DNA of 64,000 bases from an uncultured Planctomycetia bacterium (GCA_964415355.1 CAYPYS010000006.1:752-64751), one strand, 5' to 3'; positions 17,709-47,743 are shown, counted from the stretch's first letter. Made by a program: numbers and translations. Notes: generated from the letters alone by a model not told the origin.

Positions 17709-18641
17709 ATGTTACATGATAATATAAAGTGTCTGGTCTGTGATTCCAAGAATTCAAGAGAGTCTATTTATCCGGGTTATTTGTATAAAGATAAAAAATA
17801 TAAGAAGTATCAATGCAAGAGATGCTCTTTTATTTTTATTGATCCCATACCTGATAAAGGTGAAGTAAGAGAAATATATAATAACCATGCTTACTTTGAC
17901 GATTATTTTGTGCCAAATGCCAAAGGGTGTGGATATTTAGATTCTCAGGAGGCTGCTTTCGGCAATGCCGAAAAGACATTGGATAAAATAAAATTATATT
18001 CAACCGGGACTAGGTTGCTTGAGATAGGTTGTGCCGGAGGGTTTTTTCTTAGGGCAGCAAAGAAGTCTGGTTTTGAGGTTACCGGAATAGAAATCAATAA
18101 AGAAATGGTAGAGATCGCCCGTAAAGAATTAGGAGACAAGGTTATTCACGGCGATATCATGGATCTAGAACTCAGGGATGCAAGATTCGATATTGTTTGC
18201 ATGGGCGATGTCTTTGAGCATCTAATCGACATATCTAAAATCACAGGACGTATTAAGGATATTTTAACGGATAGAGGGATTTTATTAATAGAGGGCCCTG
18301 TAGCATATTATAAAACTTTATACAATTTTCTTCTGAAATTGAAATTTTTCTTAAAGAGAAGATGTTACAGTACGAATCCGCCTACACATCTTTGGGAATT
18401 TACGCCTGGGAATCTTAGATTATTTCTGGAGAGACATGGTTTTAAGGTGTTGTATATGGAGCTATGGGAAAGTTCTGCACCTGATAGAAAAGTATTTTTC
18501 AAACAAGACAAGCATGTTTTTTTGAAATCAATTGCCTGGTATATAAAGGCACTCTCTGGTTGTATATCAAATAGCTGGTTTGGCAGGATAATGGGACTAG
18601 GAGACAGGGTAATCATAATAGCATCAAAATCAACTTTTTAA
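17709..18641 (+). CDS. class I SAM-dependent methyltransferase with N-terminal zinc ribbon
   Basis: CLVCDS...CKRCSF; LLEIGCAGGFFL; FDIVCMGDVFEHL. Confidence 0.6.
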   Translation: MLHDNIKCLVCDSKNSRESIYPGYLYKDKKYKKYQCKRCSFIFIDPIPDKGEVREIYNNHAYFDDYFVPNAKGCGYLDSQEAAFGNAEKTLDKIKLYSTGTRLLEIGCAGGFFLRAAKKSGFEVTGIEINKEMVEIARKELGDKVIHGDIMDLELRDARFDIVCMGDVFEHLIDISKITGRIKDILTDRGILLIEGPVAYYKTLYNFLLKLKFFLKRRCYSTNPPTHLWEFTPGNLRLFLERHGFKVLYMELWESSAPDRKVFFKQDKHVFLKSIAWYIKALSGCISNSWFGRIMGLGDRVIIIASKSTF

Positions 18642-18677
18642 GTTTACATTTTAACGTTGTTGAAATGTAAACTTAAG
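18637..18677. repeat. 41-bp palindromic element, copy 6 (C>T variant)
   Basis: tttaagtttacattttaacgttgttgaaatgtaaacttaag. Confidence 0.9.
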
Positions 18678-18691
18678 GGGATATAGGGAAT

Positions 18692-20602
18692 ATGTGCGGG
18701 ATTGCAGGAGTCTTATATAGGGATAATAGGAAGGTAGATCAAGGGGTCCTCAAGCGGATGACTGACACCTTGATACACAGAGGTCCTGATGACGAGGGTT
18801 TTTATATTAACAGGTCTGGGAATCTAGGGCTGGGGTTTAGGAGGCTGAGTATCATAGATCTTGTCACTGGGCATCAACCTGTTCCGAACGAAGATAAAAC
18901 AATTTGGACGGTCTTAAACGGAGAGATATATAATTTTATAGAAATCAGAGAGCAGTTAGAGAAAAAAGGTCATATATTCAGCACAAAGGGCGATGCTGAA
19001 GTACTCGTGCATTTGTATGAGGATAAAGGCATTGATTGCCTGCATGATTTAAGAGGGATGTTTGCATTTTGTATATGGGATGATAGGAATAATTTGTTGT
19101 TTATGGCGAGGGATAGGGCAGGCAAAAAACCTCTTGCTTATCTGCAGAAAAACGGATGCATGATCTTTGCTTCAGAGATAAAGGCCATATTGCAACATCC
19201 TGATGTTAGTGCGGAACTTGACATGGGTTCGATGGATCACTATCTGACCTATGGATATTCTTTGCCTGGGAGCTCTATGTTTTCCGGGATAAAAAAGCTT
19301 CCACCCGCACATTATCTTATTTGTGACAAAAACGGAATAAAGATAAAGAGATATTGGGGGTTGAATTATGAAGATAAGTTAAGGTTAAAAGAAGAAGATT
19401 ATGCGGATCTGATTTTAAATAAATTAAGAGAGGCGACGAAGCTTAGGATGATAAGCGATGTTCCTCTTGGCGCATTGTTGAGCGGAGGAGTGGATTCGAG
19501 TGCAGTAGTAGCTTTGATGAGCGAGGTATCCAGTAGACCCGTAAAGACTTTTTCTATAGGATTCAACGAGAAGAACTATAGTGAGTTAGATTACGCAAGA
19601 TTGATCTCAAAGAGATTTAATACCGAACATTATGAATTTGTCGTAAAACCTGATGTCTTGGGTCTTCTTCCGAAGCTGGTGTGGCATTATAATGAGCCGT
19701 TCGGTGACTCTTCCTGTATACCTACGTATTATGTGGCAAATATGGCGAGAAGGCATGTTACTGTGGCGCTTAACGGAGACGGAGGAGATGAGTCATTCGC
19801 TGGATACGAAAGGTATATAGGCTTAAAATTTTCAGAACTCTTTAAAATTATACCAGCGCCGCTTTTGAAATTCTCATATTCTATGTTAACTGGCATAAAT
19901 CGCGTTGCGAATAAGAGCGAGACATCGAGGTTTTCAAAAATATGTATGTATATCAAGATACTCTCGGATTATAAAAAGAGATATATTTATCCTAGATTTA
20001 TATCTTATTTTACCCCGGAAGAAAAGGAGTTTTTATATAATGAAGAATTCAAGAGAAGGAATAATCTTGGCTACTCTTTTGATTTCTTGGCAGATGTAAT
20101 GGATGGTTTTCAAGGCAGGGATACAGTGAATAGGGCAATGGCTACTGATATACTTACGTATTTACCCGAAGACCTTCTGGTGAAGATGGATATAGCTGCA
20201 ATGGCCAATTCGTTAGAAGGGAGATCTCCTTTTCTTGATCATAAGGTTATGGAGGCAGCTTCGAGAATCCCATCGAACTTAAAACTTAGAGGCATCATGA
20301 CAAAATATATATTGAAAAAATCTTTACAACCCATAGTGCCCAAGCAAGTTCTTTATAGAAAAAAAATGGGGTTTGGCGTGCCTCTCCCGAGTTGGTTCAG
20401 AAATGATTTAAAAGGATTTATCCAGGATATCTTGCTTTCCGATGAATTCATAAAGAGGGGATTTTTTAATAAGGTATTTATTAAGAAAGTGCTTGATGAT
20501 CATATATCAGGCAGGCGGAATAATGCTAATAAGATATGGGCGTTATTGAATTTTGAGCTCTGGCACAGAATGTTTATTGATAAATCATGGACATATTCTT
20601 AG
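18692..20602 (+). CDS. asparagine synthetase B-family glutamine amidotransferase (probable sugar/uronate amidotransferase)
   Basis: N-terminal MCGIAG Ntn Cys; SGGVDSS PP-loop; 636 aa. Confidence 0.8.
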   Translation: MCGIAGVLYRDNRKVDQGVLKRMTDTLIHRGPDDEGFYINRSGNLGLGFRRLSIIDLVTGHQPVPNEDKTIWTVLNGEIYNFIEIREQLEKKGHIFSTKGDAEVLVHLYEDKGIDCLHDLRGMFAFCIWDDRNNLLFMARDRAGKKPLAYLQKNGCMIFASEIKAILQHPDVSAELDMGSMDHYLTYGYSLPGSSMFSGIKKLPPAHYLICDKNGIKIKRYWGLNYEDKLRLKEEDYADLILNKLREATKLRMISDVPLGALLSGGVDSSAVVALMSEVSSRPVKTFSIGFNEKNYSELDYARLISKRFNTEHYEFVVKPDVLGLLPKLVWHYNEPFGDSSCIPTYYVANMARRHVTVALNGDGGDESFAGYERYIGLKFSELFKIIPAPLLKFSYSMLTGINRVANKSETSRFSKICMYIKILSDYKKRYIYPRFISYFTPEEKEFLYNEEFKRRNNLGYSFDFLADVMDGFQGRDTVNRAMATDILTYLPEDLLVKMDIAAMANSLEGRSPFLDHKVMEAASRIPSNLKLRGIMTKYILKKSLQPIVPKQVLYRKKMGFGVPLPSWFRNDLKGFIQDILLSDEFIKRGFFNKVFIKKVLDDHISGRRNNANKIWALLNFELWHRMFIDKSWTYS

Positions 20603-20603
20603 T

Positions 20604-20644
20604 CTTAAGTTTACATTTTAACGTTGTTGAAATGTAAACTTAAA
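20604..20644. repeat. 41-bp palindromic element, copy 7
   Basis: cttaagtttacattttaacgttgttgaaatgtaaacttaa. Confidence 0.9.
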
Positions 20645-20653
20645 AGGGGAGTT

Positions 20654-21346
20654 ATGAAGCTGTCGATAATAATACCTGTTTTTAATGAGAAAGATACGAT
20701 TCTTCCGGTTCTTGATAAGATCCAAAAGGCCTATTCTGGAGAAAAAGAGATAATTATAATAGACGATTATTCTAGTGATGGCACAAGGGAGTTGCTGACC
20801 GAATATTGCAGCAGGCGCGATCATATACGTTTGAGTTTCAACGAAGCAAATTACGGAAAAGGCAGAAGCATACGAAATGGATTGTTGCATGCGACCGGTG
20901 ATTTCGTAGTAATACAGGATGCGGATTTAGAGCTCGATCCAAGTGAATACAATAAATTAATAGCTTTTGGCGTAGAAGAAAAAGGGTCTGATGTAGTATT
21001 TGGTTCGAGGTTTCTCGAGTCAAAAAAAGGAAATGTACCTATAAACAGAGTGGCTGCGAATAAGATACTCACTTCCATGATCAATATCTTGTATGGCAGC
21101 AGGTTAACGGATATCATGACCTGTTATAAATTGATAAAGAGAGACGTGTTTTTGTCGTTGGGCCTGAAATGCGATAGGTTTGATATAGAGGCAGAGATAA
21201 CGTGCAAACTCCTCAAAAAAGGCATTGGAATATCAGAGGTACCAATAGATTATAATCCAAGAAGTTGGGAACAAGGAAAGAAGATACGGGCCAAAGATTT
21301 TTTCAATGTAAGTAAAGCTATTTTTAAATACAGATTTTCAGATTAA
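20654..21346 (+). CDS. GT2 polyprenyl-phosphate sugar synthase-like (DPM1/ArnC-like, soluble)
   Basis: MKLSIIIPVFNEKDTI...IIDDYSSDGT...DADLELDP; ATG at 20654 with RBS aaaagggga; the track's upstream extension is repeat-encoded. Confidence 0.65.
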   Translation: MKLSIIIPVFNEKDTILPVLDKIQKAYSGEKEIIIIDDYSSDGTRELLTEYCSRRDHIRLSFNEANYGKGRSIRNGLLHATGDFVVIQDADLELDPSEYNKLIAFGVEEKGSDVVFGSRFLESKKGNVPINRVAANKILTSMINILYGSRLTDIMTCYKLIKRDVFLSLGLKCDRFDIEAEITCKLLKKGIGISEVPIDYNPRSWEQGKKIRAKDFFNVSKAIFKYRFSD

Positions 21347-21366
21347 AAGGATATAGAGTGTAAGTT

Positions 21367-22785
21367 ATGCTATTCAATTCTTTACAATTTGCCGGATTCT
21401 TCATTATAGTCTATTGCCTTTATTTAGCTATGAATCATAAATGGCAAAACAGAATGCTTCTTATAGCTAGTTTTATTTTTTATGGCGCATGGGATTGGAG
21501 ATTTCTATTTTTAATGTTCGTTACTATAATCACGGACTATTTCTGTGCACTCAAGATAGACGAATCAAAAGAAGATAAAACAAAAAAAAGATTTTTGTTT
21601 TTAGGGATATTCGTAAACCTGCTTATATTGAGTTTCTTTAAATATTTCAATTTCTTTGCCACGAGTCTCCAGGGGTTATTCGGCTATTTTGGTTTTTCTG
21701 CCAACCCGAAACTTCTCAATATAATACTTCCTGTCGGTATATCTTTTTATACATTTCAGGCGTTGAGCTATATCATAGATGTCTATAGAGGAGATATAAG
21801 ACCTACAAAGAGTCTTAGAGATTGCGCGCTTTTTATTTCTTATTTTCCACAGCTTGTAGCCGGGCCTATCATGAGGGCAAAAGACCTTCTTCCTCAGGTC
21901 ATTAGGCCGAGAAAATTATCACTCGAGAAATTTTATGAAGGATGCTACCTTATTTTCTGGGGCCTTTTTCTGAAGATCTTCGTTGCAGATAATCTGGCAA
22001 CTATAGTAAATCCAGTGTTTGCATCTCAGGGGCCTTACAATGCAGCGAGAGTGCTTATAGCGTTATATGCATTTGCATTTCAGATATACTGTGATTTTGC
22101 AGGGTATTCCAATATAGCCAGGGGCCTTGGTAAGTGCATGGGGTTTGATATTATGGTTAACTTTAATCTACCGTATTTTGCTACTAACCCCAGTGATTTT
22201 TGGAAAAGGTGGCACATAAGCTTATCAACTTGGCTTAGGGATTACTTGTATATACCTTTAGGAGGCAACAGGGTATCTGGATTTATTACTTATAGGAATC
22301 TGGCAATAACTATGCTCTTGGGTGGCCTTTGGCATGGAGCTGCATGGACATTTGTTATCTGGGGGGCTTATCATGGCTTGTTGCTTATCATACATAGATC
22401 GCTTAAACCAGTACTTGCAAAACTCCCTGTCCCCAGGAATCCCGTTTTGGAAAGGGCATGGTTTTTTCTGCGCGTTATTTTCTTTTTTCACTTTACCTGC
22501 CTGGGTTGGTTGATCTTCAGGGCTGAATCTGCAGGGCAGATATTTAGTATGCTCGGTAGCTTTGTTTCTGGTTTTAATCTTGGTTCGAATATGGGTCTTT
22601 TTAGCCTAGTCCGATTGATCTGGTTACTGACATTAGTACAATTTATCCAGTTTATAAGGAGGGATAAGATGGTTATATATAGATCAGGGGTAATAGTTAA
22701 AGCAGCATTTTATATAGTCTGTTTTTATTCTATGATAATATTTGGAGTAAATAGTGGAAAAGAATTTATCTACTTTCAATTTTAA
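21367..22785 (+). CDS. MBOAT-family membrane O-acyltransferase (AlgI/DltB-like)
   Basis: polytopic; FYTFQALSYIIDVYRG; WHISLSTWLRDYLYIPLGGNR; conserved His. Confidence 0.8.
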   Translation: MLFNSLQFAGFFIIVYCLYLAMNHKWQNRMLLIASFIFYGAWDWRFLFLMFVTIITDYFCALKIDESKEDKTKKRFLFLGIFVNLLILSFFKYFNFFATSLQGLFGYFGFSANPKLLNIILPVGISFYTFQALSYIIDVYRGDIRPTKSLRDCALFISYFPQLVAGPIMRAKDLLPQVIRPRKLSLEKFYEGCYLIFWGLFLKIFVADNLATIVNPVFASQGPYNAARVLIALYAFAFQIYCDFAGYSNIARGLGKCMGFDIMVNFNLPYFATNPSDFWKRWHISLSTWLRDYLYIPLGGNRVSGFITYRNLAITMLLGGLWHGAAWTFVIWGAYHGLLLIIHRSLKPVLAKLPVPRNPVLERAWFFLRVIFFFHFTCLGWLIFRAESAGQIFSMLGSFVSGFNLGSNMGLFSLVRLIWLLTLVQFIQFIRRDKMVIYRSGVIVKAAFYIVCFYSMIIFGVNSGKEFIYFQF

Positions 22786-23929
22786 GAGATTGCCAGGCGC
22801 ATTTCTTATTGCACTTTCGATTATAGTTATTGTTTATTTTGTCGAGATCTTTATATTGCCAATTAACTTTTTTACTTTTAGAACCTGGGAGGCCTTAATG
22901 GTAAAAGGCCTTCTTCCCGGAGAATTTTATCCTAATATGAAGATATCGATGATTGAAACAGGAGACTTGGGACATCATACTAAATTTGCTGTAGAGAAAG
23001 AAGTAGAGTGGGAGACTGATCGTTATGGATATAGGAAACACGATATAGGAACAATTAGACATCGAATAGTAATTCTTGGAGATTCTGCTGTAGCAGGAAC
23101 AGCGCTTACTCAAGAAGACATGCTTTCAGAGGTTTTGGAGCGAAGACTAAAGGTTAGCGTCTATCCCTTTACTCCTTCTAGGTATCCCCTAGTAGATAGT
23201 TTTTTAAATGAAAAGCGTTTTATTGATAATCCTCCAGATGTAGTCATTCTAGAGAGGATTGAAAAAAAGATACCGGAGTTGTCCGTTTTCAAACTGGATT
23301 TTGAGGCAGGGCACAGATATTCCTGGCTAGAGCGAGGCTGGAAAGATTTTCTAGGCAAACATCAAGATCTTGCAGTATTACTCGACAGGATCTACAAAAA
23401 TAATATGGGTAATTATTTTAAGAGCAGACTCGAAATTATGATCCAGCACCCTGTACAACTGGTTATCAAGCCGAGCCAGAGACATGATTCACCTAGTGCT
23501 GTACGTGGTACAGCAGATAATGGCATGCTCTTTTTGAAAGAGACGGTTGACAGTATGGCTACTGGAATAGATATCTTACCCGAAGACATAGATAGGATCG
23601 CAGAAACCATAGATTCTTATGACAAAGCGTTTAGAAAAATGGGTATTAATTTTGTTTTCATGCCTGTGCCGAACAAGGAGAGTGTTTATTACGAAGAGTT
23701 ACCTATCGAAGATAACAAAAAGCCGAGATTTCTCAAAGACTTGGTCTTGAAATTACGACACAGAGGAGTAGAGGTAATCGATGTGCAGCAGGCTCTTGAG
23801 GAAGCATCTCGAAAAAATAATATCTTGCTTTATCATACAGATGACACGCACTGGAATGCAGAAGGCATAAAGATAGTAGCTGATTTAATCGAGCAAAGGT
23901 TGTACCATATGGGATTTGACTCAAAATGA
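22754..23929 (+). CDS. membrane-anchored SGNH/AlgJ-AlgX-like O-acetylation partner protein
   Basis: single N-terminal TM helix; C-terminal HTDDTHWN motif as in AlgJ/AlgX-type proteins; position immediately after MBOAT. Confidence 0.45.
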   Translation: MEKNLSTFNFKRLPGAFLIALSIIVIVYFVEIFILPINFFTFRTWEALMVKGLLPGEFYPNMKISMIETGDLGHHTKFAVEKEVEWETDRYGYRKHDIGTIRHRIVILGDSAVAGTALTQEDMLSEVLERRLKVSVYPFTPSRYPLVDSFLNEKRFIDNPPDVVILERIEKKIPELSVFKLDFEAGHRYSWLERGWKDFLGKHQDLAVLLDRIYKNNMGNYFKSRLEIMIQHPVQLVIKPSQRHDSPSAVRGTADNGMLFLKETVDSMATGIDILPEDIDRIAETIDSYDKAFRKMGINFVFMPVPNKESVYYEELPIEDNKKPRFLKDLVLKLRHRGVEVIDVQQALEEASRKNNILLYHTDDTHWNAEGIKIVADLIEQRLYHMGFDSK

Positions 23930-25605
23930 CAAGAAGGGAGCACCTGGTGAACAAAAGGACATTTTTGATATGCTTTTTTATTGTGTTGATATTGGCCTCT
24001 TTTCTGAGATTTACCGGACTAAGAGATAGAGGTATATTTTTATGCGACGAAGGCGATTATCTTGCAGGGGGTCGCACGGTCGTAGCTGCACTTGATTTTG
24101 CTTTTAAAAGAATATTCAGTTCAGGAGAAACAGGTATTTCTTTTTCTGAATACCTATCTGAACATGGAGGAGGTTATGCCTCGGCAGTAAAACCTGGATA
24201 TTATCTTCTGGTCGCAATATCTTTTTTGGTAGGAGGCGTACATGATTATTCGGTTCTTTATCTTTCGGCTATATTGGGACTTTTGACTATATTGGTGACG
24301 TCTCTTATAGGGGGGCTTTTGTATAATAGGCGCGTTGCGCTTTATGCTGCTATACTTTTAAGCTTTTCGGTGTACCATATAAATTATTCCCGTTCGACTT
24401 TTTCTGTAGCTGCTGTCGCGTTTTTCCTGTATTTGGGCGTGTATTTCATATTGAAATACTTCAAGGATCTTAAGGCTTCGCATAAAGATAATCCTGTGAG
24501 TTTGATATTAGGCGGGTTTGCTCTGGGTTATTCGTTTTCGTGTCATTATAATTTGTTAGCAACTATAGGCATTATGTTTTTGATCTGCGGATTCTTTTTA
24601 TTTAAATATTCAAAATTAGGTCGCTTAAAACATCTTATCGTATCATTTATTACCCCTCTTGTTTTGCTGGAAATACCTTATTGGGCAGTGAAATATCTGA
24701 CTAGAGGGATGACTGGGGTCACGACAGGCAAGCCATATGCCATAAAGAGTTATTTTGAGCAACTCACTTTTATTTTCAATAAAACGTTTTTTTATACCAA
24801 TAGACCTCAGGCCCCGTTTTTTTCTTATACTGATTTATTGCTTAAGACAGAAGGCGCAGTGGTTGTTTTATTATTTTTGGTAAGTTGTATTTTTATTATT
24901 AAGCGGGATTGGTTTAGAAGAGAAACGGCAGGAGCAGTTTTTTTATTTACCATGGGCCCCCTTATGTTTGTCTTTTTTTCCATGCTTGGCGAAAAAGCAC
25001 CGCGTACCATATTATCTGTTATACCGGCTTTTTGTGTAATAGCGGCGTTATTCCTGGCCGATTTTGAAAAAAGAGTCATTAAGATATTTAAAAACAGATA
25101 TATTGGTTATGGGCTTTTGGTTTTGCCTGTATGGCTTTGTATTATTTTTAGCCAGTTTTTCAATTCCCTCGATTATATAAAATTCAGGTCTCCTTATGTA
25201 AAGGCAATAGAGTTCATAAAAAGACAAGGTGATTATAAACATTTTTCAACCAGTCCGCCTGTTTCAGTGTTTTATGCTGGACTTAAGAATGCAAGTCCTT
25301 ATTGGGATATGAAACTGGAAGAGGCAAAGAGATTATATAGTAAAGAGGGCTATAGGTTTCTTATATTAGAGGTAGGGGAAGAAGGGCAGAGATATAGACA
25401 TGAGCTAGTAGATGTAGTTCTTAGGTCTGGCGTAAGGCCTGCGTTTGAAATTTTCTATAATCCTTTGCCGCTTGCACTGGAAGATCTTTTTTTCTATACA
25501 TATAAAAAAGGAGAGCCGGTTATTATTTATCATAGATACGAGAAAGATAAGCCCGGAGTTTATCCGAGTGTAAGAGTGATAGACCTTAAAGATATATTCG
25601 GATAG
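23926..25605 (+). CDS. GT-C-fold membrane glycosyltransferase (ArnT/PMT-like)
   Basis: about 12 TM helices; DEGDY acidic motif in first loop (CDEGDYLAGG) typical of GT39/GT83. Confidence 0.45.
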   Translation: MTRREHLVNKRTFLICFFIVLILASFLRFTGLRDRGIFLCDEGDYLAGGRTVVAALDFAFKRIFSSGETGISFSEYLSEHGGGYASAVKPGYYLLVAISFLVGGVHDYSVLYLSAILGLLTILVTSLIGGLLYNRRVALYAAILLSFSVYHINYSRSTFSVAAVAFFLYLGVYFILKYFKDLKASHKDNPVSLILGGFALGYSFSCHYNLLATIGIMFLICGFFLFKYSKLGRLKHLIVSFITPLVLLEIPYWAVKYLTRGMTGVTTGKPYAIKSYFEQLTFIFNKTFFYTNRPQAPFFSYTDLLLKTEGAVVVLLFLVSCIFIIKRDWFRRETAGAVFLFTMGPLMFVFFSMLGEKAPRTILSVIPAFCVIAALFLADFEKRVIKIFKNRYIGYGLLVLPVWLCIIFSQFFNSLDYIKFRSPYVKAIEFIKRQGDYKHFSTSPPVSVFYAGLKNASPYWDMKLEEAKRLYSKEGYRFLILEVGEEGQRYRHELVDVVLRSGVRPAFEIFYNPLPLALEDLFFYTYKKGEPVIIYHRYEKDKPGVYPSVRVIDLKDIFG

Positions 25606-25613
25606 GAGTTTTT

Positions 25614-26309: not shown

Positions 26310-26350
26310 GATAAGTTTACATTTTAACGTTGTTGAAATGTAAACTTAAG
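26310..26350. repeat. 41-bp palindromic element, copy 8
   Basis: gataagtttacattttaacgttgttgaaatgtaaacttaag. Confidence 0.9.
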
Positions 26351-26378
26351 CGAAAGAGGGATAGCAATAGGAGATGAT

Positions 26379-27074: not shown

Positions 27075-27094
27075 CCTTAAGAAATTATCGTAGG

Positions 27095-33542: not shown

Positions 33543-33556
33543 CGATAGATAGGAAT

Positions 33557-34771: not shown

Positions 34772-35640
34772 AGGCTTTGATTACTGGTGCAAATGGGATG
34801 TTGGCGGATGCGCTTATACCGCTTTTGAAGAAAAAAAGCTACATAATATATCCAACGGATATTGTCGGTAATGAGAATGTTATAAAAATGGATATAAGAA
34901 ACTCGGAGCAATTAATGGAGTTTGGCGCAAGGAATAAGCCGAATGTTATATTTCATCTCGCCGCTGAGACAGATGTAGACAAGTGTGAATTAAACGAGAA
35001 ACATGCGTATGAGACAAATGCCAAGGGCACAGAGAATGTAGCACTTGTTTGCAAGGCACTTGATATCCCGATGGTTTATATAAGTACAGGGGCTGTATTT
35101 GATGGTAAAAAAGAGGGAGGTTATACAGAGGAGGACGAACCTGGGAGCCCGGTGAATGTATATGGTAGAAGCAAATTAAAAGGAGAAGAGATAGTACGGT
35201 CACTATTGACTAAATATTATATTATAAGGGCTAGTTGGATGATAGGGGGATTTAATAAAGATAAGAAATTTGTCTGGAAGATAGTTCATCTTTTAAAGAG
35301 CAAAAAGGAAATAGAGGTCGTCATTGATAAAGCAGGTAGCCCTACTTTTACAAGCGACCTTGCAAAAGGCATGATTGATATTGTGTCTACCGGTAAGTAT
35401 GGCGTATATCATTGTGTCAATAAAGGTATATGCACGAGATTCGATATTGCCAAAAAAATAGCCGAGTATTTAGATAAAAAAGAGGTCATTCTGAAGCCAG
35501 TTACCTCAGAAAGATTTCCGTTGCCTGCGCCAAGGCCAAAGTCAGAAGCATTGATCAATCATAAGCTTTGCTTAATGGGAATAGACAATGCGAGGCCATG
35601 GGGAGATGCTTTAAGGGAGTATATAGAAGAGATAAAATAA
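34762..35640 (+). CDS. dTDP-4-dehydrorhamnose reductase-like (RmlD family)
   Basis: ITGANGMLA; STGAVFDG...YGRSKLKGE pattern characteristic of RmlD. Confidence 0.65.
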   Translation: MQLKALITGANGMLADALIPLLKKKSYIIYPTDIVGNENVIKMDIRNSEQLMEFGARNKPNVIFHLAAETDVDKCELNEKHAYETNAKGTENVALVCKALDIPMVYISTGAVFDGKKEGGYTEEDEPGSPVNVYGRSKLKGEEIVRSLLTKYYIIRASWMIGGFNKDKKFVWKIVHLLKSKKEIEVVIDKAGSPTFTSDLAKGMIDIVSTGKYGVYHCVNKGICTRFDIAKKIAEYLDKKEVILKPVTSERFPLPAPRPKSEALINHKLCLMGIDNARPWGDALREYIEEIK

Positions 35641-36716
35641 TGAGAATATTGTTTATAGAACCGTATCCAATCGAAGGGCCGAGTAGTCGTTATAGGATAG
35701 AGCAGTACATACCTTATTTTAAGCATAATGGGATAGAATGTGTTGTCAGGCCGTTTGTTTCTTCAAAGTTTTACAGGATTATTTATAAAAAAGGTTTTTA
35801 CTTTCAAAAGATGTTGTTTTTTTTACAGAGTACCCTTAGTAGATTTTTTGATATTTTTAGCGCGCTGAAATCAGATATTATTTTTATACACCTGGAGGCC
35901 TTTCCATTTGGACCTCCATTGTTTGAATGGGTTCTATCAAAGGCGGGCAAAAAGATTATATATGATCTTGATGATGCGATATATATGGGTATTACAAGCT
36001 CTGCCAATAGCTTTTTGAGGTATTTGAAATGTCCGTCAAAGATCAAAAAAATAATTAAAATGGCCGATCATGTCATAACTTGTAACGGATATCTGGCTGA
36101 CTATGCCAAGAAATATAATAAAAATATCACAGTTATACACACTTCCGTAGATACGGAAAAATTTAAACCAATAAATAAGGAGAAGAAAGAGGGCTTAATA
36201 ATAGGATGGATAGGGAGCCATAGTACTGCAAAATATTTGTCGGAATTAAAAGGCATCTTTGTCAGGCTCGTTTCAGGCAGATACCATTTTGTCCTAAAAA
36301 TCATAGGGGCAGGAGACGAATATGATTTTGATGTACCAGGGATAGAAATTATTAAACTCGGCTGGAATCTTAAAGACGAAATAGATCAATTTCAATCTCT
36401 TGATATAGGCGTGTATCCTTTGCCGGATAACGAATGGACTAGGGGCAAGACAGGCTTCAAAACCATTCAATATATGAGCGTAGGGGTTCCCTGCGTAGTG
36501 TCGGCAGTAGGAGCAAATAAGAGCATAGTGGAAGATGGTATAAATGGTTTTATAGCAGCCTCTAAAGAAGAATGGATAAAAAAGATATCGATGCTCATAG
36601 AGGATGTTGATTTACGGAAGCGAATAGGCTCTAATGGCAGGCAAACAGCCGAGGAGAATTTTTCTATAAAGGTAAATGCCCCGAAATATTTGCATGTAAT
36701 AAGAAGCCTGGCGTAG
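35640..36716 (+). CDS. glycosyltransferase GT4
   Basis: MRILFIEPYP...; GW.GS...; ATG overlaps upstream TAA (TAATG). Confidence 0.65.
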   Translation: MRILFIEPYPIEGPSSRYRIEQYIPYFKHNGIECVVRPFVSSKFYRIIYKKGFYFQKMLFFLQSTLSRFFDIFSALKSDIIFIHLEAFPFGPPLFEWVLSKAGKKIIYDLDDAIYMGITSSANSFLRYLKCPSKIKKIIKMADHVITCNGYLADYAKKYNKNITVIHTSVDTEKFKPINKEKKEGLIIGWIGSHSTAKYLSELKGIFVRLVSGRYHFVLKIIGAGDEYDFDVPGIEIIKLGWNLKDEIDQFQSLDIGVYPLPDNEWTRGKTGFKTIQYMSVGVPCVVSAVGANKSIVEDGINGFIAASKEEWIKKISMLIEDVDLRKRIGSNGRQTAEENFSIKVNAPKYLHVIRSLA

Positions 36717-36741
36717 TATTTTGTTGAGAGTAGTTATCGCG

Positions 36742-36782
36742 CTTAAGTTTACATTTCAACAACGTTAAAATGTAAACTTAAG
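36742..36782. repeat. 41-bp palindromic element, copy 9 (AAC orientation)
   Basis: cttaagtttacatttcaacaacgttaaaatgtaaacttaag. Confidence 0.9.
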
Positions 36783-36798
36783 TGAATGAAAGATTATT

Positions 36799-37602
36799 AT
36801 GTTGCCAAAAGTTTCAATTATAACGGTCTGCCTTAACAGTAGTAAATATTTGGAAGATGCAATAAGAAGCGTAACAAGGCAAAGCTACGAAAATATAGAA
36901 TATTTGGTCATAGACGGAGGTTCTACTGATGGGACAGAGGAAACCCTGGATAAATATAAAAGCAGAATAAATAAGATCGTTGCAGAAAAAGATGAGGGTA
37001 TTTTTGATGCAATGAATAAGGGCATTGGTTTTGCTTCAGGGGAGCTTATTTATTTTTTAAATTCAGATGATAAATTATATAGGGCTAATACAGTAGAGAA
37101 TATGGTAAGTTTTTTTATGAAAAATAAAGATGCAGATTTTATATATGGAAACATAGAGGTTTTTGATCCGGTTGATAATTTTTCATATATCGAGAGGTAT
37201 CCATATAAAATTACCAAAAATCTTTTTATAATTAAAACAATTGCACAGCCAGGAACTTTTTTTAAAGCAAGTTGCTTTAAAAAAAGTGGTTATTTTAATA
37301 TTAATTATAGATTTGCGGCTGACCACGACTGGTATTTAAAAGCCATATTTACTAAAGGATTAAAAGGTATCCATGTAGAGGATACCATTTCTGTTTTTAG
37401 GCTAGGGGGCAAAAGTACTCAAGCCAGAAATATGAGTTCATATTTTCGCGAAAGAGATTTGATACAAAAGAAATATTTCAACATCTTGGAATTATTATGT
37501 TCTAGGTTTTTGTTCGGAGTAAAAAAACTGTTAGGAAAGAGAAACAGTAAGTTTTTACATCGGTTAAAGATATGTTGTTTTGGGAGAAATGTTAAATGTT
37601 AG
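36799..37602 (+). CDS. glycosyltransferase GT2
   Basis: VSIITVCLNSSKYLEDAIRSV...YLVIDGGSTDGT. Confidence 0.7.
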   Translation: MLPKVSIITVCLNSSKYLEDAIRSVTRQSYENIEYLVIDGGSTDGTEETLDKYKSRINKIVAEKDEGIFDAMNKGIGFASGELIYFLNSDDKLYRANTVENMVSFFMKNKDADFIYGNIEVFDPVDNFSYIERYPYKITKNLFIIKTIAQPGTFFKASCFKKSGYFNINYRFAADHDWYLKAIFTKGLKGIHVEDTISVFRLGGKSTQARNMSSYFRERDLIQKKYFNILELLCSRFLFGVKKLLGKRNSKFLHRLKICCFGRNVKC

Positions 37603-38426
37603 ATTATAATGATAAAACAAAAAAAGCCTATGGATTTTTATGGAAAACTCATAAAAATGCCTTATTCATAAATACATGGCATTTTAATGAAGTACAGGAA
37701 AGCGTTTCTGAGCCTATAGTAAGGGGTGGCTTTGGTATAGACATTGGTTCCGGATGTGGTTACGATACATATATTATGGCTAAAACCAATCCTTCAGTAA
37801 AGATATATAGCATGGATATAAGTGATGGAGTATACAAGACGAAAGAATTTAGTCAAGGGTTGGAGAATGTATTTGTGATAAAAGGATCTGTTTTGGATCT
37901 TCCAATAAAAAATAATATATTTGATTTTGCATATTCTTTCGGAGTATTGCATCATGTCTCTGATTCTGAGCGTGGCCTCAAGGAAATAACAAGGACTCTT
38001 AAGAAAGGTGCTCCTGTTTTTTTGTATCTTTACGAAGATCATTCAGAAAATCGTATTAAATATTATACATTAAAGCTGGTTACTGTTTTAAGAAAATTTA
38101 CAGTAAAGATACCTCCTAAAATTTTGTATGGTATTTCATATTTGATTTCTCCTATTATGGTAATTTTGTTTTCTTATCCCGCCAGAATTTTTAATAGATT
38201 TAGAATTTTAAAACCATTATCTGAAAAAATGCCTTTTAATTTCGGAACCCATCTTTTTTCTCTGGTGGGTAGTCTGTACGATAGATTTAGCGTCCCCATA
38301 GAAAATCGTTTTAGTAGGCAGGAGGCTTTTGATTTACTTAGTAAGAATAAATTTACCAAAGTCAAAATTAATAGATTAAGAACAAAAGCAGGGTGGGTGG
38401 TTTGGGGGCATAAAGATAAATGCTAA
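37596..38426 (+). CDS. class I SAM-dependent methyltransferase
   Basis: GIDIGSGCGYDTYIM; FGVLHHVSD. Confidence 0.6.
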   Translation: MLDYNDKTKKAYGFLWKTHKNALFINTWHFNEVQESVSEPIVRGGFGIDIGSGCGYDTYIMAKTNPSVKIYSMDISDGVYKTKEFSQGLENVFVIKGSVLDLPIKNNIFDFAYSFGVLHHVSDSERGLKEITRTLKKGAPVFLYLYEDHSENRIKYYTLKLVTVLRKFTVKIPPKILYGISYLISPIMVILFSYPARIFNRFRILKPLSEKMPFNFGTHLFSLVGSLYDRFSVPIENRFSRQEAFDLLSKNKFTKVKINRLRTKAGWVVWGHKDKC

Positions 38427-40258
38427 AATACGAAAATATAATCTGCATATCTTCTATTGACTGGGATTTTATATGGCAGCAGCACCAGTCTATCATGTCC
38501 AGACTCGCGAAAAATGGCAATAAAGTGCTGTTTATCGAGAACACAGGCGTTAGGACGCCTACAATAAAAGATATAGGTAGGATAAGACGGCGTATAATCA
38601 ACTGGTTTAGTAGCAGTAAAGGATTTAGGAAAGAGGCTGAAAACCTCTATGTGTATTCTCCGTTGATATTGCCGTTTCCTTATTTGAGAATCGCACGATT
38701 AGTAAATAGATTTTTATTACTCAGCCCTATAAAAAGATGGATGAAGGCGGTTGATTTCCATGACCCAATCATATGGACATTTTTACCTACCCCTATTACT
38801 TTGGATTTTACGGAAAACATATTTCACAAGGCCCTTGTCTATTACTGTACGGATAAGTTTTCAGCCACTTCAAGATCAGCTAAAAAGATAACCAGGTATG
38901 AGGAAGAAGTTATGAGAAAGGCTGATGCAGTATTTGTAATGGCGAGAGGGATGGTGGATTATTGTGCCAAATTTAACAAAGATGTTATGTGTATACCTAT
39001 GGGCATTGATGTGGGGAGATTTACCGATGATAAGAATGTTGCTGAACCTCTAGAGATAAAGGGAGTCAGTAGGCCTGTGATCGGCTTCATAGGAGGAGTG
39101 AGGAATTCCATAGACAAAGAGCTTGTTGTGTATCTTGCAAAGAGATTCAGCGGCTATACATTTGTTTTCGTGGGACCTATACAGACGGATATATCTAGGT
39201 TAAAGAGGATTGGAAATGTAATATTTACAGGCTCAAAGGATCACGAGGAGCTTAAAAGATATATAAAATTTTTTGACGTATGCATGATACCATACAAGAT
39301 AGACGATTATACGAATAATATTTCACCTGCCAAGCTAAACGAATATCTTATCATGGGAAAACCTGTGGTCTCTACTAGGCTTGGAGAGGTAGAGCGTTTC
39401 AATAGAGAGAATGGCAACATCTTGTTTGTAGGGGGTAATATAGAAGAGTTCGGAGATCTTATAATACAGGCTGTAGAAAAGGATAGTGATATTTTAAGGA
39501 AAAAGAGAAAAGAAGTTGCTTGTAATAATAGTTGGGACAAGAAGACAGAGAAGATGTCCGATATTATAATGACCGTGATTAAAAGAAAAGAAGAAGCGAT
39601 GGAATTAAATTGGAAGACAGGCCTTATGAGGCTATACCGAGAAGCCAGAGGCAAAACAGCAAAAGCTGTTGTTGCTATTGCAGCGTTATGGTTGATAATT
39701 TTTTATTCTCCTTTATTGTGGTTCATTGCTGAGCCTTTAAGGATTTCGCAGGTGCCGCAGAAAACAGACGCTATAGTTGTGTTTGGGGGCGGGGTCGGTG
39801 AGACCGGAAGCCCAGGCAAGAGCACCATAGAGAGAGCAAGATATGCCGTGAGTTTGTATAAAAAGGGGTATGCCGACACAATAATATTCTCATCGGGTTA
39901 TACCTATATATATAACGACGCCGAAAACATGAGGCTTTTTGCTGTCTCTATGGGCGTGCCCAAAAGAGATATTATATTAGAACAGAATGCGGATAGCGCT
40001 TATGAAAATGTAAGATTTTCCAAGGATATAATAAAAAGAAATGACTGGGATTCCATATTACTGGTCAGCTCGCCTTACAATATGCGTCGTGCTTCGCTTG
40101 TTTTTAATAAATGGGATCCTGATATAAAAGTTACCTATACTCCTGTGCCTGATAGCCAGTTTTATGATAAAAGCAAAGGTGTGAGGCTGGAACAGATACG
40201 AGCAATCGCTCACGAGTATTTGGGGATAATATATTATTTAATAAAAGGGCATATCTAA
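38420..40258 (+). CDS. GT4-like glycosyltransferase fused to C-terminal DUF218 (ElyC/YdcF/SanA-like) domain
   Basis: N-terminal 400 aa GT-B-like; C-terminus TDAIVVFGGGVGETGSPG...IIFSSGYTY...LLVSSPYNMRRA matches DUF218 signature. Confidence 0.5.
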   Translation: MLKYENIICISSIDWDFIWQQHQSIMSRLAKNGNKVLFIENTGVRTPTIKDIGRIRRRIINWFSSSKGFRKEAENLYVYSPLILPFPYLRIARLVNRFLLLSPIKRWMKAVDFHDPIIWTFLPTPITLDFTENIFHKALVYYCTDKFSATSRSAKKITRYEEEVMRKADAVFVMARGMVDYCAKFNKDVMCIPMGIDVGRFTDDKNVAEPLEIKGVSRPVIGFIGGVRNSIDKELVVYLAKRFSGYTFVFVGPIQTDISRLKRIGNVIFTGSKDHEELKRYIKFFDVCMIPYKIDDYTNNISPAKLNEYLIMGKPVVSTRLGEVERFNRENGNILFVGGNIEEFGDLIIQAVEKDSDILRKKRKEVACNNSWDKKTEKMSDIIMTVIKRKEEAMELNWKTGLMRLYREARGKTAKAVVAIAALWLIIFYSPLLWFIAEPLRISQVPQKTDAIVVFGGGVGETGSPGKSTIERARYAVSLYKKGYADTIIFSSGYTYIYNDAENMRLFAVSMGVPKRDIILEQNADSAYENVRFSKDIIKRNDWDSILLVSSPYNMRRASLVFNKWDPDIKVTYTPVPDSQFYDKSKGVRLEQIRAIAHEYLGIIYYLIKGHI

Positions 40259-40292
40259 GTTTACATTTTAACGTTGTTGAAATGTAAACTTG
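40255..40292. repeat. 41-bp palindromic element, copy 10 (slightly truncated)
   Basis: ctaagtttacattttaacgttgttgaaatgtaaacttg; provides TAA stop of upstream gene. Confidence 0.85.
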
Positions 40293-40296
40293 TCTT

Positions 40297-41169
40297 ATGG
40301 CGAATTCGTGCAATATTTGCAATAGCAGTTCTTATGAAACTATTTTTATCAAAGATAGATATAATATAGTCAAATGTCTGTCCTGTGGCCTGGTCTATAT
40401 CGAAAATCCTTTAAAGGATGACGAATTGAAGAAGTTGTATTCTTTCGATTCGGATTATCACAAGTGTTTCAGTGACGCTAATTCTTATCAATGCAAGAGG
40501 CAGTCGAAATTGGCCTACAAAAAATACAAATATCTTAAGCGGCATAGTAAAAAAGGTCGAGTTTTAGATATAGGGTGTTCCGCTGGTTTTTTTCTTAAAA
40601 TCGCGAAAGATAATGGATGGGAGGCACGTGGCGTAGAGATATCGGGCGATACGTCACAAATTGCAAGGGATAGATATGGCTTGAACGTGTTGACAGGTGA
40701 TCTAGAGGTAGATAGTTTTTCTCCAGGTTCGTTTGATGCTGTCACGTTATGGGATACGTTAGAACATGTTAGGGATCCAAGAAAGACTATGTCTATAGTT
40801 AATAAGGTACTTAATGTCGGAGGGACAGTAATTATATCTACGCCGGATATAGAGGGGCTATTTCCTAGATGTGCTCGTAAGATATCTGGGGTGACAGGTG
40901 ACTGGATTCATCCCGAACCTCCTCATCACCTTTACCAGTTTTCAAAAAATACGCTGCGAATGTTATTAGAGCTGTCAGGCTTTGAATTGATAAGGATGTA
41001 TTATGAAAGGATACCTATTACATATACTTTCAAAAGTTTTAAGATCTTAAGAAAATCATTGCACAGCTTATTGCGCGCATCTATGATTGTGCCGTTGAGT
41101 TTCGTGGGTCCATGGATAAAGTCAGGCGATATTATAGTAGTCGTAGCTAGAAAGATAAGAGGTATATAA
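40297..41169 (+). CDS. class I SAM-dependent methyltransferase with N-terminal zinc ribbon
   Basis: CNICNS...CLSCGLVY; VLDIGCSAGFFL; AVTLWDTLEHV. Confidence 0.6.
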   Translation: MANSCNICNSSSYETIFIKDRYNIVKCLSCGLVYIENPLKDDELKKLYSFDSDYHKCFSDANSYQCKRQSKLAYKKYKYLKRHSKKGRVLDIGCSAGFFLKIAKDNGWEARGVEISGDTSQIARDRYGLNVLTGDLEVDSFSPGSFDAVTLWDTLEHVRDPRKTMSIVNKVLNVGGTVIISTPDIEGLFPRCARKISGVTGDWIHPEPPHHLYQFSKNTLRMLLELSGFELIRMYYERIPITYTFKSFKILRKSLHSLLRASMIVPLSFVGPWIKSGDIIVVVARKIRGI

Positions 41170-41173
41170 CGTT

Positions 41174-42139
41174 ATGGAATACGAGAGAGGCGGAAAACAA
41201 AAGGAATTTTACGATAAGGATGATGTTATATATAGATGCTGCCCTTTGTGCAACAGTAAGGATAATCGTAATATCTATACTGAAAGAGGACATATAGCTA
41301 TAGTTAGTTGCAAGAAATGTGGTCTTATTTATACAAACCCCACAGTAAGAAGTTCTGAGAAAAACTACTGGGGTGAAGAAAATAAATATTACGAAGAGGC
41401 TCGTTTGATATTTCATAACACGGGGAAACATCACAGGGATACTAATTATTTGGAAGATATAAGCATAATAGAGCGCTTAAAGTCAGTCGGGTATTTTCTG
41501 GATATAGGAACGAATATGGGCATGTTTTTAAGGCATACGCGTGCGAAAAAATGGATTGTTACAGGAATCGAACCTTCGCCGGCTTTGTCTGAAATGGCTC
41601 GTAAATACTTTGATTTAAATGTAAAGACATGTTATTTGAACGAAGCGGGTTTTAAAGACGAATCTTTTGATATAGTGACAATGACGGATGTTTTTGAGCA
41701 TATAGCAGAACCTAAAAAGATGTTGGTTGATATAAAAAGAGTTCTTAAGCACAATGGTATATTATTCATAAAAGTGCCGAATGGGAGATGTAATCTATTA
41801 AAATTATGGCTCGCTAAGATATTCGACAGGTTAAAAGATTATGATATTTTTGACTCTTATGAGCATCTTACACATTTTACCCATGATACATTAAAAAGGA
41901 TGCTAGAGGAATGTGGTTTTAAGATCAAGAAAATCTATATAGGAAAACCCATACAGTTACCTGTCTGGCATAAATATGTGGGGCATTATTATCAATATCC
42001 TAGTCCGTGGTTTTTAGATTGGAAGAATTATATATTGAGGCAGGTGTTTTACTGGATATCTAAGTTAGAGCGGTTGCTAAGGTTTGGTAATATAGGTTAT
42101 TTTGCACCTAATATCGTGATGATAGCTTCTAAAATATGA
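41174..42139 (+). CDS. class I SAM-dependent methyltransferase with zinc ribbon (paralog)
   Basis: CCPLCNS...CKKCGLIY; FLDIGTNMGMFL; IVTMTDVFEHI. Confidence 0.6.
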   Translation: MEYERGGKQKEFYDKDDVIYRCCPLCNSKDNRNIYTERGHIAIVSCKKCGLIYTNPTVRSSEKNYWGEENKYYEEARLIFHNTGKHHRDTNYLEDISIIERLKSVGYFLDIGTNMGMFLRHTRAKKWIVTGIEPSPALSEMARKYFDLNVKTCYLNEAGFKDESFDIVTMTDVFEHIAEPKKMLVDIKRVLKHNGILFIKVPNGRCNLLKLWLAKIFDRLKDYDIFDSYEHLTHFTHDTLKRMLEECGFKIKKIYIGKPIQLPVWHKYVGHYYQYPSPWFLDWKNYILRQVFYWISKLERLLRFGNIGYFAPNIVMIASKI

Positions 42140-43314: not shown

Positions 43315-43337
43315 CGATTATGAGAGTGGGAATGACA
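43292..43337. repeat. REP2 copy plus partial second copy
   Basis: gattcccgcttttgcgggaatgacg ... gggaatgaca. Confidence 0.85.
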
Positions 43338-43441
43338 GTAAAAGAAAATAGATACTCCTGTGTCTATATATAAGAGAGGGGGTGAATTAAAGAGGTTGAT
43401 TTTTAAAGTCAGATGGCAGTATAATGCACAGGAGGAGAGCT

Positions 43442-43858: not shown

Positions 43859-43860
43859 TG

Positions 43861-43885
43861 GATTCCCGCTTTCGCGGGAATGACA
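43861..43885. repeat. REP2 copy
   Basis: gattcccgctttcgcgggaatgaca. Confidence 0.9.
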
Positions 43886-43896
43886 AAGGGGTCATC

Positions 43897-47709: not shown

Positions 47710-47734
47710 GATTCCCGCTTTCGCGGGAATGACA
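47710..47734. repeat. REP2 copy
   Basis: gattcccgctttcgcgggaatgaca. Confidence 0.9.
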
Positions 47735-47743
47735 TTTTTCGCT

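Follow-up and report, generated by a model that had tools for sequence, protein, structure and literature searches.

What would a bacterium methylate with nine S-adenosylmethionine (SAM)-dependent methyltransferases (MTases) encoded in a single run of glycan genes? The question is raised by a stretch of 64,000 nucleotides (nt) from an uncultured Planctomycetia bacterium (GCA_964415355.1, CAYPYS010000006.1:752-64751; the whole stretch is referred to here as the window). A preliminary description of it had proposed an unusually MTase-rich glycan locus and, as its product, a polysaccharide with heavy O-, N-, and C-methylation. We scanned every gene of the window with Pfam and judged NCBIfam models by their curated cutoffs; genes are designated by their start positions in the window. 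Positions 42 to 47701 are a cell envelope glycan biosynthesis array; it spans 48 kb or more of the window and extends upstream of it. Our preferred explanation (probability, roughly 0.7) is one long glycan array in which a conserved core, including the MTase at 41174, is combined with variable tailoring modules that hold the other eight MTases, and from which a C- and O-methylated product would result.

Nine MTases in one glycan array

The array consists of 42 genes, all in one direction (+ strand), with a largest intergenic gap of 109 nt and with overlaps between 23 neighboring pairs; the + strand carries every long open reading frame (ORF) of the window that has a family match. Nineteen of the genes are of glycosyltransferase (GT) type (i.e., ten GT4, five GT2, three GT-C/PMT_2, and one WecA/MraY-type initiating transferase, 44856, the only initiating transferase found in the window). 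The remainder include WecB and RmlD equivalogs (NCBIfam), several short-chain dehydrogenase/reductase (SDR) sugar-nucleotide enzymes, an AsnB-type amidotransferase, an MBOAT and AlgX-like O-acetylation pair, and four B12-binding radical SAM genes (B12-rSAMs). The G+C content is 0.36 to 0.39 across most of the array versus 0.40 to 0.47 downstream, and a 353-nt gap with a cobalamin riboswitch follows the array before a different operon begins. All nine MTase genes or domains of the preliminary description were recovered by Pfam and NCBIfam at the positions it had given:

5926 to 6954, + strand: sugar O-MTase candidate of the TIGR04371/NanM family
6954 to 8171, + strand: predicted nucleoside diphosphate (NDP)-hexose 3-C-MTase of the TcaB9/KijD1/TylC3 type, with Methyltransf_13 (Zn), Methyltransf_23, and Methyltransf_14 domains
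11678 to 13651, + strand: GT2 fused to a Cys4-ribbon MTase domain
17709 to 18641, + strand: Cys4-ribbon class I MTase in the variable (accessory) part
25614 to 26309, + strand: small class I MTase of 231 amino acids (aa)
26379 to 27074, + strand: small class I MTase of 231 aa with a hydrophobic C-terminal segment
37596 to 38426, + strand: class I MTase of 276 aa with a hydrophobic segment
40297 to 41169, + strand: Cys4-ribbon class I MTase of a very large uncharacterized family
41174 to 42139, + strand: Cys4-ribbon class I MTase of the conserved Omnitrophota core

The proposal of an MTase-rich glycan locus is thus borne out: 9 of the 42 array genes encode MTases, compared with 0 of the 15 genes downstream. 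At a class I MTase gene frequency of 1 to 3%, which is a rough assumption and not a measured value, the chance of at least nine MTases among 43 genes is 4e-10 to 4e-6, and a density of nine per 42 genes well exceeds any plausible background.

The set does not resolve into housekeeping enzymes. None of the nine MTases reached a UbiG, UbiE, rRNA, or tRNA equivalog cutoff, although the preliminary description had named rRNA or ubiquinone MTases as the identities that would undo its proposal. Over all nine, the best housekeeping scores in NCBIfam were 47.2 bits for UbiG (20 to 47 bits across the MTases; cutoff, 103), 47.2 for MetW (cutoff, 189.5), 40.3 for BioC (cutoff, 185), 24 for RsmA (cutoff, 171), and 16.9 for RlmA (cutoff, 303), and MenG was likewise below its cutoff. 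JGI names relatives of 41174 "benzoquinol methylase"; these are generic COG labels, and we rejected ubiquinone and rRNA MTase identities, every equivalog score being far below cutoff. Eight of the nine MTases retain an unaltered SAM motif I; the 11678 domain carries a variant form. None of the nine carries a signal peptide and all would use SAM; therefore, they are predicted to act on the cytoplasmic side. Six of them (17709, 25614, 26379, 37596, 40297, and 41174) gave Methyltransf_11/23/25-type matches in Pfam, with E values of 1e-11 to 1e-24. On sequence grounds, only two (6954 and 5926) can be tied to a specific, predicted sugar reaction.

Predicted C- and O-methylation at the nucleotide-sugar level

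The protein encoded at 6954 is, judged by its sequence, unambiguously a homologue of the dTDP-sugar 3-C-MTases. It shows their three-domain layout, with all three domains above cutoff (PF08421, 57.7 bits; PF13489, 53.3 bits; PF08484, 187.6 bits), and in the PDB it matched KijD1 (E = 6.8e-127) and TcaB9 (E = 4e-120), with ungapped alignment over aa 3 to 405. A Cys4 ribbon is formed by C4, C7, C45, and C48 (PF08421), and residues Y67, H172, Y213, E215, and H216 align with Y76, H181, Y222, E224, and H225 of TcaB9, the active-site residues of that enzyme. The C-methylation proposed for the glycan therefore has strong backing in this gene. For O-methylation, backing comes from 5926, which scored 125.5 bits against a cutoff of 44 for TIGR04371 ("putative sugar O-methyltransferase"; model positions 7 to 271 of 273). 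Its Pfam match is weak (Methyltransf_2, 24 bits); its motif I reads ELGAGYG, and public gene calls give a protein of 342 aa starting at 5926. N-methylation, the third type proposed, is unsupported. Because the window lacks a sugar aminotransferase, it has no basis here, and the NodS-like match of 25614 is generic (Pfam, 28.9 bits; NCBIfam, 21.5 bits versus a cutoff of 300).

Four genes that follow the predicted C-MTase are probably NDP-sugar tailoring genes:

8250 to 11681, + strand: RmlC-like cupin (8250) and three SDR epimerase/dehydratase/reductase genes (8656, 9696, and 10728)

In Pfam they matched dTDP_sugar_isom and Epimerase/GDP_Man_Dehyd, and their best NCBIfam models were dTDP-glucose 4,6-dehydratase and GalE, all under cutoff. 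We propose that 6954 would add a methyl group to C-3 of an NDP-4-keto-6-deoxyhexose, that 5926 probably O-methylates within the same nucleotide-sugar pathway, and that the cupin, the three SDRs, and RmlD (34762) would complete a branched, methylated 6-deoxyhexose. The nucleotide-sugar C-methylation predicted for 6954 is the best supported step of the proposed mechanism, since the reactions of its homologues are known.

The Cys4-ribbon MTases

The preliminary description had singled out 17709, 40297, and 41174 as sharing a CxxC...CxxC ribbon joined to an MTase domain. All three instances are real, and the count was too low: five proteins have this architecture, the others being 6954 and the C-terminal domain of 11678. 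In the translations, the cysteines are at C8, C11, C36, and C39 (17709); C5, C8, C27, and C30 (40297); and C23, C26, C46, and C49 (41174). Clustering of the MTases by family, which had been suggested as a check and which we ran as an all-against-all BLAST, united 17709, 40297, and 41174 in one group of distant paralogues (26 to 29% identity over the full length; E = 1e-22 to 1e-28). The 26379 protein and the 11678 C-terminal domain were loosely attached to this group, and 25614, 37596, and 5926 stood apart.

The three ribbon MTases are also weakly related to the two N-terminal domains of 6954 (BLAST, E = 2e-6 to 5e-3). When 6954 was aligned with them, the two CxxC pairs superposed, as did motif I, the histidine of DVxEH, and the "EH" of YDEH. 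In the 41174 family, the four cysteines, motif I (D110, G112, and G116), Y65, H176, and Y229-E230-H231 were invariant in 34 orthologues. An AlphaFold (AF2) model of 41174 (pLDDT, 87.7; pTM, 0.88) retrieved generic class I MTases first in Foldseek, while the longest alignments were with KijD1, TcaB9, and MtmC (281 to 350 columns; TM score, about 0.5). Phospholipid N-MTases and sterol MTases are also among the solved relatives of 41174 (E = 1e-6 to 1e-7). In their ribbon and MTase core, 17709, 40297, and 41174 resemble the 3-C-MTases and may work similarly, yet they are not members of that family. Assignment of their ribbons to PF08421 was tried and rejected, as no match was found.

The members of the group differ in their distributions. 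The 17709 protein (Methyltransf_11, 67 bits in Pfam) has just two close homologues (58% and 51% identity) among 5.8e9 proteins. The 40297 protein (Methyltransf_23, 82 bits in Pfam) is of a type represented by 575 cluster representatives at E <= 1e-30, most of which align from residue 3 to 5 (i.e., the first CxxC) onward. Among nine long relatives of 40297 that were scanned, three are GT4-MTase or GT11-MTase fusions, five are tandem MTase-MTase proteins, and one has an unassigned N-terminal extension. The start of 40297 is disputed: the JGI call (219 aa from 40510) loses the ribbon, and the ENA and NCBI calls give 290 aa. Paralogue alignments, which start at the first CxxC, back the long form.

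The 11678 protein is itself a fusion of a GT2 (Glycos_transf_2, aa 9 to 136) with an MTase region that contains a Methyltransf_11 match at aa 510 to 559 (Pfam) and ends near aa 622. Its ribbon, at about aa 388 to 434, reads CPSC...CANC, and both CxxC pairs are invariant in 12 family members; stand-alone homologues of about 284 aa correspond to the C-terminal domain. The motif I position reads YESANYN, and the 12 family members keep YETAxYN together with the downstream SE, EH, and LKPGG motifs, which points to a family-conserved variant with putative SAM binding rather than to decay. The GT-MTase fusions, both 11678 and those among the relatives of 40297, support a role for these MTases on glycans.

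Small and putatively membrane-anchored MTases

Three MTases remain. The 25614 protein matched Methyltransf_12/25/23 (E = 1e-12 to 1e-13 in Pfam), has the motif I sequence LDVGSGSG, and reached no NCBIfam equivalog. The 26379 protein matched Methyltransf_23 (E = 7e-11 in Pfam) and contains Kyte-Doolittle 19-residue windows of >=1.6 at aa 158 to 208. The 37596 protein matched Methyltransf_11 (55 bits in Pfam), is hydrophobic at about aa 174 to 194, and has an orthologue with 51% identity at a related locus (L024); the start of its gene overlaps the preceding GT2 gene by 7 nt. The hydrophobic C-terminal segments of 26379 and 37596 fit action at the inner face of the membrane.

A conserved core and variable modules

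The 41174 MTase links the window to the Omnitrophota. Of its 561 homologues, the best 120 are full length with 58 to 78% identity, and every named one is from a Candidatus Omnitrophota metagenome-assembled genome (MAG). In a scan limited to one genome per species, 40 loci contained a 41174 homologue; most of their titles denote Omnitrophota MAGs, and several, with identities of up to 74%, are labeled just "uncultured bacterium" or uncultured Planctomycetia. At 43 to 57% identity, relatives were found in MAGs of Nitrospinia, Gemmatimonadota, Acidobacteria, Bacteroidota, Deltaproteobacteria, and others. By similarity only, the host of the array would be an uncultured bacterium of, or near, the phylum Omnitrophota. 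The G+C content and the layout on one strand had also suggested a Leptospira rfb locus or another O-antigen locus of a cultured organism; we dropped this assignment, as the named 41174 homologues are all Omnitrophota MAGs.

In Omnitrophota and other phyla, the orthologues of 41174 always lie amid GT4, AsnB, WecA-like, and GT-C genes. The conserved elements in the window are as follows:

33557 to 47701, + strand: core block with GT4 33557, RmlD 34762, GT4 35568, GT2 36799, MTase 37596, GT4-DUF218 38420, ribbon MTases 40297 and 41174, GT4 42136, a 144-aa ORF, SDR 43858, WecA-like 44856, and GT4 46637
18692 to 20602, + strand: AsnB-type glutamine amidotransferase belonging to the conserved core (Asn_synthase, 343 bits in Pfam)

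Core orthologues in other Omnitrophota loci share 45 to 87% identity, and the syntenic core around 41174 comprises the GT4s 33557, 35568, 42136, and 46637, the GT4-DUF218 38420, AsnB 18692, the 144-aa ORF, RmlD, SDR 43858 (identity of up to 87%), and WecA-like 44856 (up to 83%); RmlD satisfies its equivalog model (242.4 bits versus a cutoff of 224). AsnB orthologues (44 to 56% identity) are found near 41174 orthologues and travel with them across genomes. The best NCBIfam match of AsnB is TIGR03108, the XrtA/PEP-CTERM exopolysaccharide (EPS) amidotransferase (621.6 bits versus a cutoff of 816.9). A PEP-CTERM/XrtA EPS locus was rejected on this score, together with a weak stp3-like match and the lack of any exosortase in the window.

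Among the MTases, 41174 is rich in orthologues, and the others, with 37596 as a partial exception, have only paralogue-level matches (26 to 33%) in related loci; 41174 is thus a core enzyme, and most other MTases are accessory. One related locus (L007) encodes four MTases in 21 kb according to precomputed Pfam annotation, and our phmmer-based counts in related loci, which undercount relative to Pfam (2 versus 4 at L007), are used only qualitatively. Since related loci also hold several MTases, MTase richness is a trait of the lineage, with the window at the high end. Hypervariable polysaccharide cassettes have been reported in Omnitrophota (10.64898/2026.05.20.726742); our literature search on MTase-rich or B12-rSAM-containing glycan loci in this phylum found nothing specific.

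Three further observations concern the core block. The initiating transferase (positions 44856 to 46637) is an unusual fusion of a WecA/MraY-family domain (aa 11 to 325) with the N-terminal half of a WbaP/WcaJ-type protein (TIGR03023 positions 2 to 229 and CoA_binding_3); the catalytic C terminus of WbaP/WcaJ-type phosphoglycosyl transferases is missing from this second region. At 38420 to 40258, a GT4 is fused to a C-terminal DUF218 (ElyC-like) domain, and this protein occurs with 45 to 57% identity beside 41174 orthologues in several Omnitrophota loci. The 144-aa ORF at 43424 to 43858 has no Pfam or NCBIfam match and is found with 60 to 62% identity in the same position between GT4 and SDR genes at two related loci (L007 and L013).

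The B12-binding radical SAM genes

The preliminary description had also counted four B12-rSAMs toward methylation of the polysaccharide. The genes themselves are present, with PF02310 and PF04055 above cutoff for 751, 2213, and 27095 (Pfam):

42 to 776 (cut by the window edge), 751 to 2208, and 2213 to 3580, + strand: three tandem B12-binding radical SAM genes
27095 to 28585, + strand: fourth B12-binding radical SAM gene, immediately downstream of two MTases and ahead of a polyprenyl-phosphate hexose synthase-like GT2

A sister contig (L009 positions 1 to 3823) shows that the array goes on upstream of window position 1. It carries genes for a B12-binding radical SAM protein of 505 aa, for two small hydrophobic proteins (173 aa and 187 aa), and for a radical SAM protein of 374 aa that matches DUF3463 weakly; on this contig, the gene cut by the window edge has its full-length form of 490 aa. 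With at least one more B12-rSAM directly upstream, the array contains at least five copies.

Could these proteins be cobalamin-dependent C-methylases of unactivated sugar carbons (GenK/GenD1-like) that add further C-methyl groups to the product? We regard this as possible but doubtful. Among 13 distinct Omnitrophota loci of 17 kb or longer, 7 have a B12-rSAM homologue no more than 10 kb from the 41174 orthologue, and solved relatives of the array proteins include the methylases TokK (E = 3e-13), TsrM, and CysS. These rank behind AprD4, a sugar diol dehydratase and nonmethylase, which is the closest solved relative (E = 3e-21 for the tandem genes and 4e-9 for 27095). The best NCBIfam matches (HpnJ, BchE, the ladderane-lipid family, PhpK, and Sden_1168) were all far below cutoff. 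None of the characterized methylase subfamilies (GenK/KedN5, HpnR/HpnP, PhpK, TsrM, and TokK) was reached by 751, 2213, or 27095, and no methylase cutoff was even neared (KedN5, 55 to 70 bits versus 700; HpnR, 35 to 84 bits versus 650). HpnJ, a sugar ring-contraction enzyme, was the best match for three of the four, and the ladderane-lipid family was the best match for 2213. We retain the HpnJ likeness as a hint of sugar-rearranging chemistry. The hopanoid side-chain pathway, which the HpnJ matches and the weak DUF3463 match might bring to mind, was rejected (66 to 197 bits versus a cutoff of 578; no hopanoid genes in the window). Sugar C-methylation by cobalamin-dependent radical SAM enzymes is established for gentamicin (PMC5819394, PMC4340712), but the same architecture also carries out reactions other than methylation (PMC9204698). 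For these reasons, we treat C-methylation by the B12-rSAMs as a hypothesis and not as a reading of the genes.

A cobalamin salvage/uptake operon (47729 to 56918) adjoins the array directly after its last GT gene, its riboswitch lying at 48350 to 48524 (RF00174, 88.7 bits), and speaks for the methylase hypothesis; however, this adjacency was not seen in the other Omnitrophota loci compared. The gene order is CobO, riboswitch, BtuF/C/D-like ABC transporter genes, CobC, CobU, CobT, CobS, a Diphthami_syn_2-like gene, and a TonB-dependent receptor. Between this receptor and groES/groEL, a 225-aa ORF (56984 to 57661) has no Pfam match.

A predicted module for modification outside the cytoplasm

The part of the array that precedes the core block contains a predicted extracytoplasmic module:

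20624 to 33542, + strand: AglJ/DPM-like polyprenyl-phosphate-hexose synthases (20624 and 28536), GT-C/PMT_2 proteins (23926, 30860, and 32193), and an MBOAT and AlgX-like O-acetylation pair (21367 and 22754)

It also holds two small MTases, one B12-rSAM, and one GT4. The NCBIfam matches in this module (AglJ, dolichyl-phosphate hexose transferase, and PpgS) were all below cutoff. By analogy with known systems, the AglJ-like GT2s would make polyprenyl-phosphate-hexoses that the GT-C enzymes add outside the cytoplasm, and the MBOAT/AlgX pair would acetylate the glycan there.

Proposed pathway and alternatives

Taken together, one long array with a conserved core and variable tailoring modules could operate as follows. 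The initiating transferase 44856 would start a polyprenyl-linked glycan, and GT4 and GT2 enzymes would extend the chain. Seven MTases (17709, 40297, 41174, the 11678 domain, 25614, 26379, and 37596) most likely methylate sugars of polyprenyl-linked intermediates just after the neighboring GTs have acted. We propose methylation at the membrane face because the MTase and GT genes overlap tightly, because fusions of the two occur, and because these MTases have no nucleotide-sugar domain. The methyl groups from the ribbon and small MTases would be internal decorations or chain-end caps, and the product would be a glycan with C-methyl, several O-methyl, O-acetyl, and amide modifications. Domain identities, gene order, and conservation are direct observations on the genes; from them we infer all of the substrates and how many methyl groups the product carries.

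Several points weigh against this explanation. For seven MTases, the only family matches are generic class I ones, and no substrate can be read from their sequences. Even at E <= 10, the isolated ribbons of 17709, 40297, and 41174 give no PF08421 match, and these proteins have no PF08484, the C-terminal dTDP-sugar-binding domain of TcaB9, so their substrate does not follow from the analogy with TcaB9. The window showed no flippase, polymerase, ligase, or ABC exporter, and the class of glycan (O-antigen, capsule, EPS, or protein glycan) is not fixed thereby. The closest genome match has 74% identity. Finally, the array could encode more than one product.

This last point leads to the most substantial alternative, in which two or more glycan pathways share the array and the nine MTases are split among their products, with no single heavily methylated polymer. 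The array might, for example, combine a core glycan, a strain-variable O-antigen or capsule, and extracytoplasmic side chains, with some MTases adding a WbdD-like chain-stopping methyl group. Conservation is uneven in the way that such a composite would predict: 41174 and, in part, 37596 have orthologues with 45 to 78% identity, the other MTases stay at the paralogue level noted above, and 17709 is nearly unique. Two polyprenyl-phosphate-hexose synthase-like GT2s and three GT-Cs suggest separate side-chain additions (cf. PMC11127046), MTases are known to act in glycan assembly by capping of the WbdD type (PMC3482155), and both the low G+C content of the array relative to its downstream region and the hypervariable Omnitrophota cassettes agree with a composite array. 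On the other hand, the array runs uninterrupted on one strand with no gap of >109 nt, has one initiating transferase in the window, and includes no MTase with a WbdD-like kinase or coiled-coil domain. We consider a composite array a real possibility, though one that falls short of being probable. A different alternative is that several of the generic MTases act off the glycan (on a lipid, a protein, or a small molecule) or are inactive paralogues in a fast-evolving cassette. The seven generic matches, the phospholipid and sterol MTases among the solved relatives of 41174, and the noncanonical motif I of 11678 would be expected under it. It is nevertheless improbable, given that MTase genes overlap GT genes tightly, that GT-MTase fusions occur within the same families, that synteny with GT genes is kept across phyla, that the SAM and active-site motifs of 41174 are invariant in its 34 orthologues, and that the 11678 motif is kept across its family and not decayed.

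Returning to the single glycan array, a methylated glycan with C- and O-methyl groups is likely and can reasonably be inferred. The "heavily methylated polysaccharide" of the preliminary description stands to that extent; its N-methyl component is unsupported, and its wording presumes that nine enzymes share one product.

A broader version of this explanation is more speculative, and we think it unlikely as a whole: Omnitrophota and scattered members of other phyla would make a conserved envelope glycan, the lipid-linked intermediates of which are tailored by Zn-ribbon MTases and by B12-rSAMs that C-methylate or rearrange sugar carbons. The Zn-ribbon family would then represent a TcaB9-like core without the nucleotide-sugar domain, with the invariant Y...H...YEH residues as its putative active site. 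If this were true, chemistry known to date only from antibiotic pathways would enter primary cell surface polysaccharide synthesis, and surface glycan synthesis would be tied to the supply of vitamin B12. Omnitrophota are uncultured, often ultrasmall, and possibly host dependent; a methylated envelope glycan, perhaps tailored by radical SAM enzymes as well, would be a target for structural glycobiology and, if conserved in the phylum, for labeling with antibodies or lectins and for studies of host attachment. Because the Zn-ribbon MTase families are large and uncharacterized, a single assigned substrate would annotate many genes. The recurrence of B12-rSAMs beside glycan genes offers a lead to new sugar chemistry and to a link between cobalamin scavenging and glycan synthesis.

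Comparison with known systems

The locus is of a known kind but forms an unusual variant, found in an uncultured lineage, and its chemistry is predicted throughout. Multiple O-methylations by clustered class I MTases are known from the mycobacterial clusters for methylmannose polysaccharide (MMP), methylglucose lipopolysaccharide (MGLP), and methylated glycolipids (PMC9883506, PMC2674218), and, as proposed for the array, the character of the MMP and MGLP glycans is set by such multiple O-methylations. MMP and MGLP differ in being cytoplasmic and lipid binding and in being made by only a few genes, one to four of which encode MTases, and their clusters include no GT-C, C-MTase, or B12-rSAM. Three-component Gtr-type glycosylation (polyprenyl-phosphate-sugar synthase, flippase, and GT-C) is matched in two of its three components by 20624/28536 and the GT-Cs (PMC11127046). 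However, the window yielded no flippase of the GtrA or MATE type, and the interleaved MTases and B12-rSAM are foreign to known systems of this type.

In WsaE of the Geobacillus S-layer glycan, an MTase domain is built into a glycan assembly enzyme. In WbdD (Escherichia coli O9a/O8; PMC3482155), too, assembly of the glycan is physically coupled to a SAM-dependent MTase, and in both systems the MTase works on the lipid-linked chain. The same logic is suggested here by the GT2-MTase 11678 and by the GT4-MTase and GT11-MTase relatives of 40297. WbdD, however, has a kinase domain and a coiled-coil ruler, works with an ABC exporter, and is a single capping MTase, whereas the array has nine MTases; neither such domain was found in any of them (Pfam), and no Wzm or Wzt was found in the window.

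GenK, GenD1, and AprD4 have the same B12-binding and radical SAM architecture as the array genes, and their targets are sugar carbons in the synthesis of aminoglycosides (PMC5819394). They serve secondary metabolism; in contrast, the copies described here lie in a primary envelope glycan array and reach no family cutoff. The locus also invites comparison with the 3-C-MTases TcaB9, KijD1, and TylC3 (MtmC). The ribbon MTases have in common with them the Cys4 ribbon, the MTase part, and two histidine positions, at an identity of just 14 to 23%. The 6954 protein has the same three domains (i.e., Cys4 Zn, Rossmann MTase, and C-terminal) and keeps the active-site Tyr/His/Tyr/Glu/His residues; TcaB9, KijD1, and TylC3 belong to the synthesis of antibiotic deoxysugars in actinomycetes, and their homologue 6954 instead lies in a cell envelope glycan array.

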